This document shows, piece by piece, positions 1,761 through 7,630 of a DNA stretch of 38,287 bases (within the stretch, counting starts at the first letter, position 1; each line of letters opens with the position of its first letter). The stretch is from a virus. The notes beneath the pieces are model-generated. The model saw only the letters and a list, made by a program, of their open reading frames with translations. It did no database searches and had not been told where the DNA came from. The position numbers and the translations under genes were made by a program. Where the stretch lies: UHGV virus genome UHGV-1369766. The stretch is one strand, 5' to 3'.

Positions 1761-2096
1761 TCACCTCAGGTGCTTACCACGTTCTTCAAACTCTTCTTGG
1801 CAATCAGCACGGCGCTGTGCATCCCACAACAGGAACTGCATATCAGCACACTCGCTGAGATCGTCAGGTTCGGCTGCGGCTTCCAGTGCCTCTTTTGAGA
1901 GGTGTTTCAGTGGACCAATGGGGCCAACGCAGCCAAATGTGGAGTCAGACCATTTGGCATGCTCGTGGCGAATCAGTTCGCGTTCCAGTGATGCCAGTGC
2001 AATTCGTGCCAGTTCCATTTGTTCGCCACGAGTAAGCCCGTTTTCAAGCGGATTTTTAATGAATAATTCGATACGTTCTTTGGTAATAGTGGTCAT
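1761..2096 (-). CDS. Hypothetical early-left protein
   Basis: 111 aa ORF, ATG with AAGGTGA RBS at 7 nt spacing; tightly packed with neighbours. Confidence 0.5.
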   Translation of the reverse strand: MTTITKERIELFIKNPLENGLTRGEQMELARIALASLERELIRHEHAKWSDSTFGCVGPIGPLKHLSKEALEAAAEPDDLSECADMQFLLWDAQRRADCQEEFEERGKHLR

Positions 2097-2291: not shown

Positions 2292-2969
2292 TCACTCTCC
2301 TTTGATGCGAATGCCAGCGGCGCGGATTGCAGCGATGATCTCAGAAACTTTGTATGCCATTACCGTTTGGTAATCCTCGTGAAAATCTGTTCGATGAAGC
2401 ATGCTGCTACGTTCCGGGAGCAGTATTTCCCGCTCCTCCAGTTCTGCTATGCGCTTCTCTGCGGCTTCCAGCTTCTCGCGCATATCGTCAACGTACTCGA
2501 CCAGAGAACCGCCAGCAGGAATTTCGCACTCCTCGACCAGTTGGAAGTAGATATCAGCTGCGGCCCGTGTGTTGCTATGCCTAGCGTCGCCCATCTCACC
2601 TTCACGAAGAGCATCGCGTTCGGCGGTAAGATTGGCTATTTTGCTGTCTTTGCCTTCCAGCTCAACGCGCAGCCTCCCTACCGTTAGCGCAATATCCTCG
2701 TTCTCCTGGTCGCGGCGTTTGATGTATTGCAGGTTTCTTTCCCGTTCATCCAGTAGTGCCAAAGCAATCTTGGGATTAAAGGCAGCAATAAATTCAGCGT
2801 TGTTTTTCAGAACGTGTTGCGCAATGGCCTGACTACTTAGCCGGACTTCATAACCACGTGCGCCACGGTGTGGTTTATATGAGTCCCAGTCACCCCACGT
2901 TGCTTTCTCTGCCTTTTCACGCAGTGCCTGATAGTCAATCTTGCTCACTGGTTGCCTCCTTTGCGCCAC
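2292..2969 (-). CDS. Ead/Ea22-like protein
   Basis: 225 aa ORF with coiled-coil central part and C-terminal ...[14 protein letters not shown] motif recalled from Ead/Ea22 family; apparent GTG start. Confidence 0.65.
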
Positions 2970-3130
2970 ATCGCATTCAGATATTTGTTTTGATTCACTG
3001 ATGGAAAAGAATTTCTTTTAAGCAATTCCTCTCTCGATGGCATTGGCTTTACGCGTTGGCGAATAATCATTTCTGCCGGAAGAATGCCGGGATTGTATGC
3101 AAGTCCTCTCATGGTAAATTCCTCAGTCAT
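2945..3130 (-). CDS. Hypothetical small protein (61 aa, ATG-start version of the 2945..3262 ORF)
   Basis: ATG at 3128-3130 lies 3 nt upstream of the stop of the preceding gene (coupled arrangement); the longer track ORF would need a TTG start. Confidence 0.3.
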
Positions 3131-3416
3131 TACTGATAGCGCCATAGCGTGAGCGGTAATTACGCTGGCGCGGGTCAATTTCAGGGAAGTGGGTATATGT
3201 GGCTTTGCGGAATGGTCGGATTGATGTCTGGTAAATTCGCTCGCGTTCTTCTTTCTCTGCAAGCCATATACAATGGCGAAATTCCTTTTCCTCTTTCGTT
3301 TCCTGCGGTAGCGACATTATCCGGTTGTAGTTTTTCCTGAATTTATCCAGCACCTCCGATACGGAATTGCCGGAACAGCGGCGCGCGTCATCCGCACCAT
3401 ACAGAGGCGCTGGCAT
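3123..3416 (-). CDS. Hypothetical protein
   Basis: 97 aa ORF; strong RBS (AGGAGAAAATC-ATG). Confidence 0.5.
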
Positions 3417-3429
3417 GATTTTCTCCTGA

Positions 3430-3897
3430 TTAAATTGCGTGAATAGCGTGACGAGGGAAGGGGAGAGTTACTGGTTCCTCGTCTGGATATATTGGCTTGT
3501 TGTGCTTGTGCCATTCAACATGACATGCTTTGCATAGCCACATCACTTCAAGAGGTTTACTGTAATCGCAGTGGTGAGCGTCTGGGTGGCATTTGCTGTT
3601 GCATTTCTGACACGTTGTTGGTCTACATAACTTACCAGATTTAATTGCTCGTTTGACTGACCATCTTGCTTGCTGTCTTTGGCGATGAGATTCCAGATAG
3701 TTCTCTCTTGCTTTGATTAATGCAACCTTGCCCTTTTCGCTTTTGTTATATTTTTTACAAGCATTATTATGTATTAGCTTTCCTATTCCTTTTTGATATT
3801 CAGTTACTCGTTTTTTAGTGCATTCCTTGCACACCTTATTTCTAGGATAAAAACCATTAGGTGGTTTATTCTCTCCACATTTTTTGCAAGTGATCAT
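3430..3897 (-). CDS. Zinc-ribbon / HNH-like endonuclease-type protein
   Basis: N-terminal CxxC...CxxC zinc ribbon, C-terminal ...DAHHCDYSKP...WLCKACHVEWH resembling an HNH motif; ATG with GGGAGAA RBS; the 5' half of the gene is visibly AT-rich relative to flanks. Confidence 0.6.
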   Translation of the reverse strand: MITCKKCGENKPPNGFYPRNKVCKECTKKRVTEYQKGIGKLIHNNACKKYNKSEKGKVALIKARENYLESHRQRQQARWSVKRAIKSGKLCRPTTCQKCNSKCHPDAHHCDYSKPLEVMWLCKACHVEWHKHNKPIYPDEEPVTLPFPRHAIHAI

Positions 3898-3912
3898 ATT
3901 TTCTCCCAATGA

Positions 3913-4374
3913 TTAAAATGGGATCTCATCGTCGAAGTTCATAGGAGGTTCGTTGTGTTGTGCTGGTGATGATTGCTGCTGTGGCTTCTGTGATTGCCTG
4001 CTGGCTGCTTGTTGTTTGCTGTCGCCAATGCCGCCAAGCATTTGCATCACGCCATTAATTCCGACATGAACCTCGGTTGTGTAACGGTCTTGTCCTGACT
4101 GGTCTTTCCACTTTCTGGTTCTCAGCATTCCCTCGAAATAAATCTGATCACCTTTTTTCACATACTGCCCCACGACCTCAGCCAGTTTCCCGGATACAGC
4201 AACACGATGCCATTCAGTCAATTCCTTTTGCTCGCCAGTATTTTTATCTCGCCATTGTTCTGACGTGGCTATTGTCAGGTTAGCGAACGCTGTTCCTGAT
4301 GGTGAGTATCGAACTTCCGGGTCTTGTCCTACCCGACCAAGGATAATCACCTTATTTACGCCTCTGCTTGCCAT
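3913..4374 (-). CDS. ssb: Single-stranded DNA-binding protein
   Basis: 153 aa; OB-fold-like N-terminal region, Gln/Pro-rich linker and acidic C-terminal tail ...NFDDEIPF typical of SSB. Confidence 0.9.
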
Positions 4375-5082
4375 TTATGCCGCCTGTTTTAGTTCGTTAA
4401 CTCTGATGTTCATTACCTGAACGCATTTAGCCTGCGCCTCCTCGTTGCCAGCCATTAATTGCCAGTCATGCTGATAACGCTCGATGAGTTTTTTCTTGTC
4501 AGTTTCTGTCGCTGCATAATCGCTGAAGTCTTTCAGGATTTGTTCGCAGTCAATCGATGGAGATTTCTGGTTGGTATTTTCTGGTGATGGTTTGTTATCT
4601 GATGCTGGTATTGCCCATCCCGGCAGCGATGGAGGGAGCCAGTAAAATCCTGTTCCATCCTTGAGTTTTGCCCTGTGCCACCCCTGCTTTTTATCGAGAG
4701 ATGTTTGTGCAAAACCTTCCTCAAGGTTATACAGATACCGACCGATTCCCCACTGAACGGCAGCACGCTTCATTGCACCGGAACGACCACCTTTGACGGC
4801 TTCTACCTGTGTGTTTTCAGCAGCATCCCATTTGGTTACCCATTCGGAATCAATCTTTATTGATATGCCGCATTCAACGCCGCCGTTGTTGGGAATATCG
4901 CGGTATTCATTGCGCCATCCTGCTTTGCCGCAAACATCGTCCAGGCGTTTCATGATTGCCCGGTTCGTGACATAAGCCAGCACCATAGCCCACACCTTGC
5001 CATCGCGTGTTTTACCGCTTTGCTGTATTCGCCATTCGATATCTTCAGGGCTGAATGGCTCATCGAATTTATTCAAATCCAT
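4375..5082 (-). CDS. Single-strand annealing recombinase (Rad52/Sak-like N-terminus, Erf-like C-terminus)
   Basis: 235 aa; N-terminal part with GIGRYLY-type motif; C-terminal ~60 aa (...YAATETDKKKLIERYQHDWQL...CVQVMNIRVNELKQAA) matches my recollection of the P22 Erf C-terminus; GAGGTGA RBS. Confidence 0.75.
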   Translation of the reverse strand: MDLNKFDEPFSPEDIEWRIQQSGKTRDGKVWAMVLAYVTNRAIMKRLDDVCGKAGWRNEYRDIPNNGGVECGISIKIDSEWVTKWDAAENTQVEAVKGGRSGAMKRAAVQWGIGRYLYNLEEGFAQTSLDKKQGWHRAKLKDGTGFYWLPPSLPGWAIPASDNKPSPENTNQKSPSIDCEQILKDFSDYAATETDKKKLIERYQHDWQLMAGNEEAQAKCVQVMNIRVNELKQAA

Positions 5083-5090
5083 AATTCACC

Positions 5091-5279
5091 TCAGAATGGT
5101 AATTCGGATGGGGAGGAAAGAAATTCGCGCTCATTCATGCGCTCTCTTTGTGCTTGCCATAAACAAAGTTGTTTCTTTGATTTATCTCCCGCTTTACGCC
5201 AGTAACGAGCCTCAGCAATGTGATATTCTCTTTTTAATCGACTTAACTCTGGAGTTTTCGCCAGCTCTACCGGAATCAT
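5091..5279 (-). CDS. Hypothetical small basic protein (possible recombination accessory factor)
   Basis: 62 aa; GGAGG RBS 5 nt before ATG; start overlaps the stop of the upstream Kil-like gene. Confidence 0.5.
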   Translation of the reverse strand: MIPVELAKTPELSRLKREYHIAEARYWRKAGDKSKKQLCLWQAQRERMNEREFLSSPSELPF

Positions 5280-5389
5280 TTAGACCTCCATTTTCTGTAG
5301 GCTTCGACGGCCTCACGAAACATCTTTTCATCGCCAATAAAAGTGGCGATAGTGAATTTAGTCTGAATAGCCATAAGTGTTTTATCCAT
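5276..5389 (-). CDS. kil: Kil-like host-killing protein (37 aa)
   Basis: MDKTLMAIQTKFTIATFIGDEKMFREAV... closely resembles my recollection of the lambda Kil N-terminus; its ATG overlaps the cIII stop (ATGGATAA). Below the ORF-track size cutoff. Confidence 0.55.
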   Translation of the reverse strand: MDKTLMAIQTKFTIATFIGDEKMFREAVEAYRKWRSK

Positions 5390-5528
5390 TTTTTGGAACT
5401 CCTGGCTGATTAAGTACGTCGATGAGTCGTTTCCATCCGTCACGTAATTTACGGGTGATTCGTTCAAGTAAAGATTCATTTAATTGGAAGGCACCCATGC
5501 GAGCGCCTCCCGCGATTGCGTAAATCAT
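5382..5528 (-). CDS. cIII: CIII-like protease inhibitor (48 aa)
   Basis: MIYAIAGG...ESLLERITRKLRDGWKRLIDVLNQPGVPKNG matches the conserved lambda CIII core as I recall it; AAGGAA RBS; not in the ORF track (<60 aa) and out of frame with the overlapping 5276..5479 track ORF. Confidence 0.7.
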   Translation of the reverse strand: MIYAIAGGARMGAFQLNESLLERITRKLRDGWKRLIDVLNQPGVPKNG

Positions 5529-5552: not shown

Positions 5553-6521
5553 TTAGTAGGTTATTTTTGTTGCGAATACTTCGCCTTTTACGATGGCTGT
5601 TATGATATTTTTAGCAACATCTTCTGATGCGCCAACCTTGATAAGGTCAGCAAGTATTTTGTTATTTACTTCTTTCCGGTGAGCTTTATCCTTTGCTCTA
5701 CGCTCTTCTTCGTCCTTGATTCTTTTTTCTTCTGCTATTCTGGCTTGCTCTTTTACTTCAGCCTCGCGCCGGATTCGTTCAGCCTCCTCCTGTGCTTTTC
5801 GGCGTTCTGCTTCAATTGCCGCCTGCTTTTCTCTTTCAGCTCGTTCTGCTGCCTCTTTTGCTTCGCGCTGTGCTCGTTGCTCGGCTTCAATGCGTTCACG
5901 CTCTGCACGTTCCGCTGCGGCCTTAGCTTCTGCTTCTCGCCTTGCTGCTGCTTCAATTTCGGCTTTTGCCTTTGCTTCGGCTTCAGCTCTGGCTTTCTCT
6001 TCAGCTTCTCTTTTTAAGCGTTCTTCATGCTCTCGCTTTTCCTGCTCAGCTTTGAGTCTTGCCTCTTCTCTTTGGCGGTCAAATTCGCGATCCATCAAAA
6101 TCGCTATTTCATGGTCAGACTCAATTTGCTTTGCGAGAGCTTCAGCTGCTGCCTTAGCTTCTTCTTCGGCTTTAATCCGCGCCTGTTCTTCCTCATAATC
6201 AGTAAGAGGCTGGCGCGCCTTGGCTTTCAGTTCATCAAGGCGATCACGCACTGTCTTGCGGTTGGCATCAATTAGCTTTGGAATTTCCTTAAGTTCAGCA
6301 ACAAGGTCTTTGCCAAGACCATCGAGATATGTTTTCGTCTGCGCAACTTTATACGCCAGAGAAGCGATCTCCTTTCTGCCCTTTGCCGTTGTGATATCAG
6401 GCACAAAGGACATAACTTCACGTTCAACCTTTTGGAGAATTTCTTCAATCTGGTCGGCAGACTGAAATACAGTCATTGCATTTGCTTTTTCAATAACAAC
6501 TAAATCTGTTACTTCACTCAT
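5553..6521 (-). CDS. Hypothetical protein with long E/R/K/A-rich predicted single alpha-helix or coiled-coil segment
   Basis: 322 aa from the ATG at 6519-6521 (GGAGGAT RBS); ~110 aa of charged repeats (AEEKARAEAEAKAKAEIEAAARRE...); position analogous to the ea10/ral/sieB accessory segment of lambda. Confidence 0.65.
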   Translation of the reverse strand: MSEVTDLVVIEKANAMTVFQSADQIEEILQKVEREVMSFVPDITTAKGRKEIASLAYKVAQTKTYLDGLGKDLVAELKEIPKLIDANRKTVRDRLDELKAKARQPLTDYEEEQARIKAEEEAKAAAEALAKQIESDHEIAILMDREFDRQREEARLKAEQEKREHEERLKREAEEKARAEAEAKAKAEIEAAARREAEAKAAAERAERERIEAEQRAQREAKEAAERAEREKQAAIEAERRKAQEEAERIRREAEVKEQARIAEEKRIKDEEERRAKDKAHRKEVNNKILADLIKVGASEDVAKNIITAIVKGEVFATKITY

Positions 6522-6533
6522 ATATCCTCCATC

Positions 6534-6561
6534 AAAAAAAACTGCCCTCACACTGGAGGGC
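6534..6561 (-). terminator. Intrinsic terminator in the PL operon (tL1-like)
   Basis: Minus-strand GCCCTC-CAGTGT-GAGGGC hairpin followed by AG and eight T; sits between the 207-aa and 322-aa genes. Confidence 0.75.
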
Positions 6562-6695
6562 AAAGAAGATTTCCAATAATCAGAACAAGTCGGCTCCTGT
6601 TTAGTTACGAGCGACATTGCTCCGTGTATTCACTCGTTGGAATGAATACACAGTGCAGTGTTTATTCCGTTGTTTATGCCAAAAATAAAGGCCGA

Positions 6696-7319
6696 CTATG
6701 CGGACTCGGAAGGAAGTCCAATCATCTTATTCAAATCTTCTACCCGTAAAGCAGGAAGTGCTGTACTTGCTTTGTCTGCTTCTTTTGGTAGCAATTCTTT
6801 GCTTTCAGGCCAAACTTCAATAAGTCGCTTAACTGTTGTGACTGAGTTCAAAGCAGCCCATACATTTGATTCGATATCCTTTTTCTTGGTTTCAAGTTTT
6901 TGTTGCAATGCGCAGATTTCATCAAACCTTTTTGTTATTTCGTGTTCTGCATCAAACATGCATTTATCTTTGGTTGGAGTAGGGAGCAATATATCTTCGC
7001 CGTTGCCGTCTTTCCCATATGAATGCCATCCAACCCTTCTGCCAGATACAGTCAGATAAATTGAAGTAGAACGAACATCGTATGAGTAAAATGAACATCC
7101 CATCTTTTCAAGTTCTTCACTTATAGCTACTAACCTGGATGATAACTGATCCACTTCCTCAGTTTTCTTTTTACCGCCAAACGCAATAACTCTGGCGTCA
7201 AGTGCAAGCTGGTTCTTTAACTTTGTTACTTCTTCAAGTTCAGTGAAAACCCCAGACTTAATTAAAGCGTTACGAGCGATTTTCTCTTTCATTCTCGTAG
7301 TTAAGCGGATTGATGACAT
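6696..7319 (-). CDS. Hypothetical protein immediately downstream of N
   Basis: 207 aa from the ATG at 7317-7319 (GAGGA RBS); 11 nt after the N stop and upstream of the tL1-like terminator; no family recognised. Confidence 0.6.
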   Translation of the reverse strand: MSSIRLTTRMKEKIARNALIKSGVFTELEEVTKLKNQLALDARVIAFGGKKKTEEVDQLSSRLVAISEELEKMGCSFYSYDVRSTSIYLTVSGRRVGWHSYGKDGNGEDILLPTPTKDKCMFDAEHEITKRFDEICALQQKLETKKKDIESNVWAALNSVTTVKRLIEVWPESKELLPKEADKASTALPALRVEDLNKMIGLPSESA

Positions 7320-7330
7320 ATTAATTCCTC

Positions 7331-7630
7331 TCAAATAAGTGGTTTGCTGCCTAATTTTATTTTCTGGCGACCAACACAAGTCACACCCATTTCACTGCGT
7401 GGCTTGCGGTAGTAAATACGGTTCTGTTTACGCTCGACTTCTTCTGCCTTCTTGCAGCGAAGGCTTCCGAGTGATGCTGCTTTGTCTGCTCTGACGCAAC
7501 CAGAGAGCTTTAGCGCAATTTTTCGCGCCAGTCGCTGCTCTTGCATTGCCTGTTCACGTTGAGCCTGTCTGCGTGCTCTGCGGCGATTTCTGGCGTTATC
7601 GTCAGCCAGATATGTAATGACTACTGTCAT
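7331..7630 (-). CDS. N: Antitermination protein N
   Basis: 99 aa; arginine-rich motif NARNRRRARRQAQ near the N-terminus; C-terminus ...YYRKPRSEMGVTCVGRQKIKLGSKPLI resembles my recollection of lambda N (...YSKPGERGITCSGRQKIKGKSIPLI); GGAGG RBS. Confidence 0.85.
   Translation of the reverse strand: MTVVITYLADDNARNRRRARRQAQREQAMQEQRLARKIALKLSGCVRADKAASLGSLRCKKAEEVERKQNRIYYRKPRSEMGVTCVGRQKIKLGSKPLI

Follow-up and report, generated by a model that had tools for sequence, protein, structure and literature searches.

The P22-like (lambdoid) prophage UHGV-1369766, a stretch of 38,287 nucleotides that is called the window below, carries an integrase gene (54-1313), an early-left (PL) operon on the minus strand and a podovirus-type late region. 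In the early-left operon, directly behind the gene for the single-stranded DNA-binding protein (SSB), lies an open reading frame (ORF; 3430-3897) for a predicted two-zinc nuclease of the HNH type which, on balance, is probably a free-standing homing endonuclease. The ORF is intact and encodes 155 amino acids from an ATG at 3897, 6 nucleotides past the sequence GGGAG; its homologues start at the equivalent Met. The surrounding region (3011-4500) is 99% identical to Escherichia phage Huey. The gene and the features around it are the following.

3430-3897, minus strand: coding sequence of the predicted two-zinc HNH-type (beta-beta-alpha-metal) endonuclease, stop codon at 3430-3432; assigned from the ORF and its translation, PHROG 2340 and an AlphaFold2 model; the 99% identical gene of Huey is labelled 'endonuclease'
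3820-3888, minus strand: N-terminal Cys4 zinc ribbon, codons 4-26 (C4, C7, C23, C26); near-invariant Cys columns, weak profile matches to the PacI and Hpy99I ribbons
3594-3897, minus strand: AT-rich 5' part of the HNH gene; GC 0.355, GC at third codon positions (GC3) about 0.28, by codon-position analysis
3430-3475, minus strand: 46-bp tail, that is, the last 14 codons (PVTLPFPRHAIHAI) and the stop codon; shared backbone, which extends SSB where phages lack the HNH gene and ends the HNH ORF in the window
3476-3943, minus strand: allele-specific cassette, comprising the SSB-tip codons (MNFDDEIPF), the ssb stop, the spacer with its ribosome-binding site and the HNH body up to ...PDEE
3898-3912, minus strand: ssb-HNH spacer of 15 nucleotides, TCATTGGGAGAAAAT, with a ribosome-binding site, read from the sequence
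3913-4374, minus strand: ssb (SSB-1 type), 153 amino acids, canonical free end ...DDEIPF (PF00436, 1.2e-36), 98% identical to the HK75 gene outside the tip codons; the proposed home and target gene
3123-3416, minus strand: abc2 (anti-RecBCD), the downstream neighbour (PF11043, 2.2e-61)
4375-5082, minus strand: gene for a Rad52/Erf-like single-strand annealing protein, upstream of ssb (PF04098, 4.9e-26; PHROG 1097, 1.7e-129)

No promoter or terminator match was found on the minus strand within 2900-4500 of the window, and the HNH gene has no associated Rfam family, tRNA, promoter or terminator.

The preliminary description of this DNA had singled out the 5' half of the gene as AT-rich, and a windowed calculation bears this out. 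The 5' 304 nucleotides (3594-3897), with a GC content of 0.355, are the lowest-GC stretch of this length in the window, against 0.395 for the whole gene and a window mean of 0.482 (standard deviation 0.039); stretches of 304 nucleotides with a GC content of 0.355 or less make up 0.17% of all those in the 38-kb window, and every one of them lies on the HNH gene. The bias is most marked at third codon positions: GC3 falls to 0.28-0.29 over the 5' part, compared with 0.44 in the 3' part of the gene and 0.46-0.53 in ssb, abc2 and erf. Because the bias is present at synonymous sites, the AT-richness does not come only from the Lys- and Asn-rich protein, and because the closest diverged alleles (74-82% amino acid identity) have a GC3 of 0.47 in the corresponding 5' part, it is a property of the history of the window allele. 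The AT-rich part was rejected as a separate insertion, the exchanged unit being the entire cassette, which starts with the SSB-tip codons and extends to the 15-codon tail.

Predicted fold of the nuclease

The protein matches PHROG 2340 ('endonuclease') at 5.4e-39, with residues 1-139 aligned to profile positions 8-169 of 171. The N-terminal CxxC pair and the C-terminal HH...CxxC...H arrangement that had been read from the translation are present at the exact residues and are conserved in homologues. The full C-terminal motif consists of C96-x2-C99, H108-H109, D111, C122-x2-C125-H126 and H130 (pattern CxxC...HH.DY...CxxCH...H), and in alignments of 25 and 122 homologues its Cys, His and Asp columns are invariant or nearly so; C125 alternates with His among relatives, and the middle Asn of H-N-H is replaced by Asp or Glu in the family.

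Curated profiles respond differently. No Pfam or NCBIfam model of an HNH or other nuclease matches the protein or 24 of its relatives at E <= 1; one distant family member reaches E 0.82 with an HNH model. Alignment of profiles with hhalign against the HK97 gp74/PF01844 alignment recovers the LCxxCH motif only, over 9-10 columns and in the right register (P about 0.02, probability 2-3%), and searches of PDB sequences with phmmer and profiles return sub-significant zinc-ribbon matches only, to PacI (E 0.11-0.16) and Hpy99I (E 0.33). Judged by its sequence, the protein scores below the threshold of the curated HNH profile, and we do not claim it as a member of the Pfam HNH family.

The AlphaFold2 model, made with the family alignment, is confident (predicted local distance difference test, pLDDT, 90.6) and shows a Cys4 ribbon and four helices, followed by a strand-strand-helix unit. 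In this predicted core, the first strand (106-109) ends in H108-H109, the second spans residues 118-121, and the helix (123-132) bears H126 and H130, the whole being flanked by C96xxC99 and C122xxC125; the tail is disordered in the model, with pLDDT <50 at residues 148-155. The predicted core fits the His-Me finger (HNH) pattern, in which a beta-hairpin is followed by a helix, with the His base at the end of the first strand and a metal ligand on the helix. The layout of zinc-ribbon HNH proteins is likewise found, with two CxxC pairs around the beta-beta-alpha core and the second pair followed directly by the His ligand (H126). The nearest solved folds, in a Foldseek search of the PDB, are those of Gme HNH, Hpy99I and PacI, with weak, non-significant scores. 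Against viral models, Foldseek gives 11 matches at E <= 1e-3, some of them labelled 'endonuclease VII' and 'HNHc'; the structural neighbours of the protein include P1 Ref and proteins like endonuclease VII.

On the PHROG 2340 match, the predicted fold and the invariant residues, we file the protein as a putative His-Me-finger nuclease of the PacI/Hpy99I-like two-zinc kind. The preliminary call of an HNH-like nuclease is thus upheld by these three lines, whereas Pfam and NCBIfam offer no HNH profile match to go with them. That description had named two findings that would together speak against it; one of these, the absence of an HNH profile match, was made, yet the composition of the locus is clearly non-uniform.

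Three alleles of the slot behind ssb

The gene had been described as an insertion whose limits could be found by comparison with related prophages, and it is indeed a sharp presence/absence polymorphism. Phage HK75 matches the window at 3011-3475 (97.8%) and at 3916-4500 (98.1%), that is, at 98% identity on both sides, and is without the 440 bp between (3476-3915). In HK75, the SSB sequence ...DDDIPF continues in frame into APVTLPFPRHAIHAI and a stop codon, which are the last 15 codons of the HNH ORF. Phage mEp235 has a tailed SSB as in HK75, followed by a gene for a DnaQ-like exonuclease. In Sf6, N7, IME10 and Bas106, the slot is occupied by another family member of 159 amino acids, Sf6 gp26, which is 48% identical to the window protein and ends in the same tail. 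All three slot alleles end at one 46-bp tail, after which comes abc2 or the DnaQ-like exonuclease gene, and each has its own version of the SSB-tip codons, that of the Sf6 type being NFDDSDIPF. Among 5,426 complete E. coli genomes, 10 carry the allele of the window, about 100 the Sf6 gp26 type and about 300 the tail only, inside 'ssb' (the empty allele).

In a binned comparison of the window with Sf6 and N7, identity starts at about 40% in the 5' part of the gene, reaches 75-83% in the catalytic part, rises to 97-100% in most bins from about 3475-3488 through the tail and abc2, and is 100% from 3474 downward. The range of 75-83% holds for the catalytic part against every relative, and the true junction is placed at about 3475-3488. 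The gene was also considered as an intragenic mosaic whose 3' third would be '91% identical to Sf6', and this was rejected, as the figure came from abc2 and the tail. At the other end, 8 of the 11 mismatches between the window and HK75 in ssb and erf fall at 3919-3943, in the SSB-tip codons and within 28 nucleotides of the junction, with the other 3 spread over the next 557 nucleotides. From the edges of identity with HK75 and Sf6 and these tip-codon mismatches it follows that the exchanged unit is about 3476-3943; the 46-bp tail (3430-3475) belongs to the backbone.

A scan of IMG/VR for the junction of tip and tail (IPF followed by APVTL) yielded at least 120 instances, 80 of which were read. 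The tailed SSBs among them lie on at least three ssb backbones and have the tip MDFDDDIPF in 71 of 78 cases, whereas 15 of the 16 HNH-linked enterobacterial SSBs of the same backbones have MNFDD(E/SD)IPF followed by a stop; one hybrid tip, MNFDDDIPF-APV, is known. The tip polymorphisms track the slot allele rather than the ssb backbone. The view that the tailed SSB arose by one lucky deletion is weakened by the occurrence of the junction on at least three ssb backbones and of a homologous tail on an unrelated SSB (see below). All 10 E. coli genomes with the window-type allele have one ssb backbone.

The slot also contains products of fusion and decay (P0013, P0014, P0015, P0017, P0018, P0024). 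Those in the databases include a fusion of an SSB N-terminus to an HNH C-terminus, a fusion in which the DnaQ-like exonuclease follows an HNH C-terminus whose tail is frameshifted, and a gp26 with an internal frameshift; L015 has kept the DNA of the tail, in a frame altered by a 2-nucleotide indel. Apart from these, at three loci (L017 1501-1980; L018 1501-1980; L227 1318-1808) the RefSeq annotation (PGAP) shows 490-bp 'empty' gaps between ssb and abc2 or the exonuclease gene, where intact ORFs of the Sf6 gp26 type and, in strain ET650, apparently the window-type ORF too are left uncalled. A weak nucleotide likeness (about 67% over 24 nucleotides, with gaps) was seen between the 3' end of the HNH gene (3476-3505, KHNKPIYPDEE) and the 3' end of ssb in L002 (2466-2510, QHNEPPMDFDDD), which may be due to chance or to an old duplication of the ssb end.

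Contexts of the family and the remainder of the operon

The family is large, with 43,342 clusters (at 50% identity) at E <= 1e-3 and 30,126 at E <= 1e-10, and is almost wholly without Pfam annotation, no Pfam or NCBIfam model being available for it. Some members contain the domain in two to four tandem copies (P0131, 306 amino acids with 3 stretches; P0143, 380 amino acids with 4 stretches). The closer relatives of the window protein (62-82% identity), in other enterobacterial prophages, always lie 9-15 nucleotides behind ssb, and this linkage holds with a Rad52-like, an ERF or a Sak4-like annealing protein and whatever gene comes after; in Vibrio phage K17, the order is Erf-SSB-endonuclease. 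In 55 of 80 IMG/VR loci with members of 30-99% identity, an ORF with SSB hallmarks is directly upstream, the hallmarks being a hidden Markov model match or an acidic ...IPF tip in an ORF that ends no more than 154 nucleotides before the match (median about 20). The background of the tip motif is 48 of the 2,756 ORFs in these 80 loci. Against relatives of 74-82% identity, the ratio of nonsynonymous to synonymous substitution rates (dN/dS) is 0.07-0.09, indicative of purifying selection.

Other members are found within split genes for DNA polymerase. In Staphylococcus phage Staph1N, an intron ORF in polA encodes KsaII (I-KsaII), which is 44% identical to the window protein over residues 50-130 (E 6e-25). 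The members in Enterococcus phage iF6 and Bacillus phage W.Ph. are located between exons of the DNA polymerase gene, and the IMG/VR loci hold three to four more such members; the intron status of these polymerase-borne members is that given in the annotation of the records.

The tail, too, has a wider distribution. In an unrelated phage with a GC content of 44% (L064, 2535-2996), the SSB ends in a homologous 15-residue tail, SPVGLQYGRHRIYAL followed by a stop, and the HNH gene starts inside this tail in another frame, that is, on the other side of the tail than in the window, a position which implies independent insertions within about 45 bp. Shorter extensions past the IPF tip occur in high-GC phages (L055, L060, L063, L068, L099, L052). 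In all the non-E. coli SSBs with an extension past IPF, an HNH gene of the family comes directly after.

Unrelated HNH genes are found nearby as well. One is often present between the gene for the annealing protein and ssb (L009 3077-3544 and L013 3010-3534, both Pfam HNH_3; L227 2267-2734), and Salmonella phage 103203_sal5 has an unrelated gene of the HNH_3 type in the slot after ssb (L005 1867-2259). Strain ET650 carries three HNH genes within 3.7 kb, and ssb is a hotspot bracketed by HNH genes.

The remainder of the early-left operon of the window includes the following genes.

2945-3112, minus strand: DUF2737 gene
2292-2969, minus strand: Ea22-like gene
5276-5479, minus strand: kil
6696-7379, minus strand: 227-amino-acid protein with a full-length Nmad5 domain ('nucleotide modification associated domain 5', PF18757, 1.3e-71)
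5553-6617, minus strand, just upstream of kil: 354-amino-acid protein rich in Glu, Ala, Lys and Arg, probably coiled-coil; no Pfam or PADLOC match
1761-2096, minus strand, near the int end of the operon: 111-amino-acid protein with a dATP/dGTP pyrophosphohydrolase domain (PF04447, 2.1e-21)

The HNH gene had been placed between ssb and an Ea22-like gene. The former neighbour is correct, but immediately downstream are abc2 and the DUF2737 gene, and the Ea22-like gene lies farther away. For the 354-amino-acid protein, relatives have Gad1 at the equivalent position; a likeness to Gad1 was rejected (BLASTP E 2.1).

Proposed homing, its alternatives and known systems

Among the roles suggested for the gene at the outset, that of a homing endonuclease is the best supported, by the intron-borne relatives, the three-allele slot and the linked polymorphisms beside the junction. 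We infer activity, target site and homing from these data, and we judge it somewhat more probable than not that the HNH gene is a promoter-less, free-standing homing endonuclease with its home at the 3' end of ssb. In the proposed cycle, an HNH-carrying phage would meet a relative, phage or prophage, whose slot holds the empty allele, with ssb running from ...MDFDDDIPF straight into the APVTLPFPRHAIHAI tail, and the enzyme would nick or cut this allele at or near the junction of tip and tail. The genome of the carrier would be protected, the cassette both splitting the site and bringing different tip codons (MNFDDEIPF). The adjacent Erf/SSB machinery, together with Abc2-modified RecBCD, would then mend the break from the genome that carries the HNH gene, and the repair would copy the cassette along with the neighbouring tip codons (co-conversion). 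The cassette, with no promoter of its own, would ride on the PL transcript.

Several features typical of homing are observed: presence and absence at a fixed site between near-identical genomes (HK75 and the window), homologues in annotated introns (KsaII, iF6, W.Ph.) and co-inheritance of the flanking tip codons with the HNH gene across at least three ssb backbones, although plain recombination could also link them. The decayed and fused copies in the slot are as expected of a homing cycle, and the HNH_3 genes beside ssb, the independent insertions that L064 implies, the ssb linkage in 55 of 80 loci and the purifying selection with invariant catalytic residues count for homing as well. Other observations weigh against it. 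We found no cleavage or homing data for any family member, and the literature found reports no activity of I-KsaII. Ordinary mosaic recombination at conserved boundary sequences could also produce the allele pattern and the linked polymorphisms; a nuclease that works with SSB would account equally well for the tight and deep linkage to ssb; and the single ssb backbone of all 10 E. coli genomes means that no recent jump of the window allele is documented. Genomes with the empty allele outnumber those with an occupied slot about three to one and, as far as the sequences tell, the HNH gene may either have been inserted into a tailed ssb or have been lost from the slot by deletion.

The tentative alternative that survives best, although we consider it unlikely, is that the protein is a member of the recombination module, namely, an SSB-coupled nuclease, co-translated with SSB and perhaps recruited by its acidic tip or tail. 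Such an enzyme would nick or process ends, D-loops and branches to feed Erf annealing or would debranch replication and recombination intermediates, comparable to P1 Ref with RecA and to T4 endonuclease VII, and proteins like these two are among its structural neighbours. The order annealing protein-ssb-HNH-(abc2) is conserved across the P22-like phages of E. coli, Vibrio phage K17 and numerous metagenomic phages, the spacing from ssb is short (median about 20 nucleotides to the start of the match; 8-15 in enterobacterial loci), and purifying selection is strong. In a 2025 survey, HNH enzymes make up the fourth kind of nuclease in lambdoid Rec modules, and the tightly packed ones are taken to be probably legitimate members, but the survey also warns that the mobility of HNH genes makes position a poor guide to role (PMC12315714). 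On the other hand, the gene is dispensable among near-identical phages, as HK75 and the window show, and the empty allele is the commonest; family members stand alone in polymerase introns with no SSB nearby; and the module already recruits RecBCD via Abc2. An SSB-coupled function also leaves unexplained why the tip codons track the HNH gene across backbones and why the slot holds two very different HNH alleles and decayed copies.

A more elaborate version, which we regard as doubtful, treats the nuclease and the 15-residue tail as a switchable SSB accessory. The family would then consist of SSB-guided nucleases that act on SSB-coated DNA in the Erf/SSB/Abc2 pathway, the SSB counterpart of P1 Ref with RecA, while the tail would cap the C-terminal Phe of SSB, block the host SSB interactome and move to the nuclease when the HNH gene fills the slot. 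The tail pattern (A/S)PV.L....RH.I.A(I/L) recurs on unrelated phage SSBs. In a milder form of the same idea, the acidic tip of SSB, with its universally conserved codons, would be the specific homing site of the whole family. The tail could be either a functional peptide or a scar.

A role in conflict had also been suggested and appears improbable; the protein would then be an effector of superinfection exclusion or defence that the prophage expresses, or an anti-defence nuclease. HNH domains are common as defence effectors, PL operons carry other conflict genes (abc2 in the window, Gad1 in the relatives L008 and L010), and a homing nuclease that cuts the ssb of a competitor would in effect exclude its markers (PMC2988022). 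However, no PADLOC model matches the protein or its neighbours, the gene is accompanied by neither a sensor nor a partner gene, and its conserved companion throughout the family is ssb and not a defence gene; furthermore, a 155-residue stand-alone nuclease in a repressed early operon would not be expressed from a quiescent prophage. Finally, it is highly improbable that the gene is an inactive, decaying remnant between useful genes that supplies the ssb stop codon and translational coupling to abc2: truncated and fused slot copies are common in the databases, homing endonuclease genes often degenerate after fixation and PGAP does not call the Sf6-type ORF, but the ORF of the window is intact and 99-100% conserved in Huey and the 10 E. 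coli genomes, keeps all its zinc-binding and catalytic residues, evolves at the low dN/dS given above and yields a confidently folded model.

To our knowledge, homing has hardly been studied in temperate lambdoid phages. The slot at the 3' end of ssb provides a simple, testable system for intronless homing in these phages, with Huey (HNH-positive) and HK75 (empty) as ready-made partners, and bears on whether the HNH genes of lambdoid recombination modules are members or passengers. A gene that was previously unannotated or 'hypothetical' can now be named, its exchanged cassette is defined and its AT-rich patch is real. Much is already known: PHROGs names the family and HNH genes in lambdoid Rec modules have been catalogued, so that the window gene adds an AT-rich member. 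We did not find described in the searchable literature the three-allele structure with a common tail, the family-wide parking behind the SSB-tip codons or the abundance of tail-capped prophage SSBs. In about 300 of the 5,426 E. coli genomes, the essential C-terminal Phe of a prophage SSB is buried under a 15-residue extension, which should alter the binding of SSB to host proteins. The family as a whole, with its approximately 43,000 clusters, lacks a Pfam or NCBIfam model and is regularly left uncalled by PGAP in E. coli genomes. The slot is a neat experimental system rather than a new principle.

Compared with canonical HNH proteins (PF01844, HK97 gp74; Gme HNH, 4h9d), to which its profile match is non-significant, the window protein has an additional N-terminal ribbon and a four-helix region, and its gene is not beside terminase and has no packaging context. 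The layout of Gme HNH, Cys38/41/73/76 with N77 (PMC3765158), is matched by C96/C99/C122/C125/H126. PacI and Hpy99I are two-zinc beta-beta-alpha-metal enzymes, although matches to them are non-significant alone and the overall superposition is poor (Foldseek E 0.7); a Tyr is reported in place of the His base in PacI (PMC3384342), whereas the family of the window protein keeps HH, and the locus has no methyltransferase partner.

Among the relatives, Sf6 gp26 (PHROG 2340; present also in N7, IME10, Bas106 and about 100 complete E. coli genomes) shares the slot (ssb, the gene, the tail, then abc2 or exo), the family and the architecture. Its C-terminal 43 residues, including the PVTLPFPRHAIHAI tail, are nearly identical to those of the window protein, against 48% identity overall, whereas its N-terminal two-thirds are of a different subfamily, with a longer zinc ribbon, about 40% nucleotide identity and normal GC content. 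This uncharacterised homologue has been an annotated ORF since 2004, and its record already notes 14 residues in common with an E. coli SSB. KsaII resembles the window protein in the helical region and the whole catalytic motif and has the classic context of a homing enzyme, but, in the K-like viruses of Staphylococcus, it is intron-borne in polA instead of free-standing behind ssb, and its N-terminus differs.

The closest parallel in organization comes from T4, in which seven free-standing endonucleases are without promoters of their own and SegG, encoded between genes 32 and 59, cuts gene 32 in phages that lack it, resulting in marker exclusion with co-conversion (PMC2988022). SegG has an unrelated fold, GIY-YIG, its target encodes an SSB from an unrelated family, its position is on the opposite side of the target gene, and its activity is demonstrated whereas that of the window protein is predicted; what it has in common with the system proposed here is a promoter-less, free-standing cassette beside the SSB gene that it targets.

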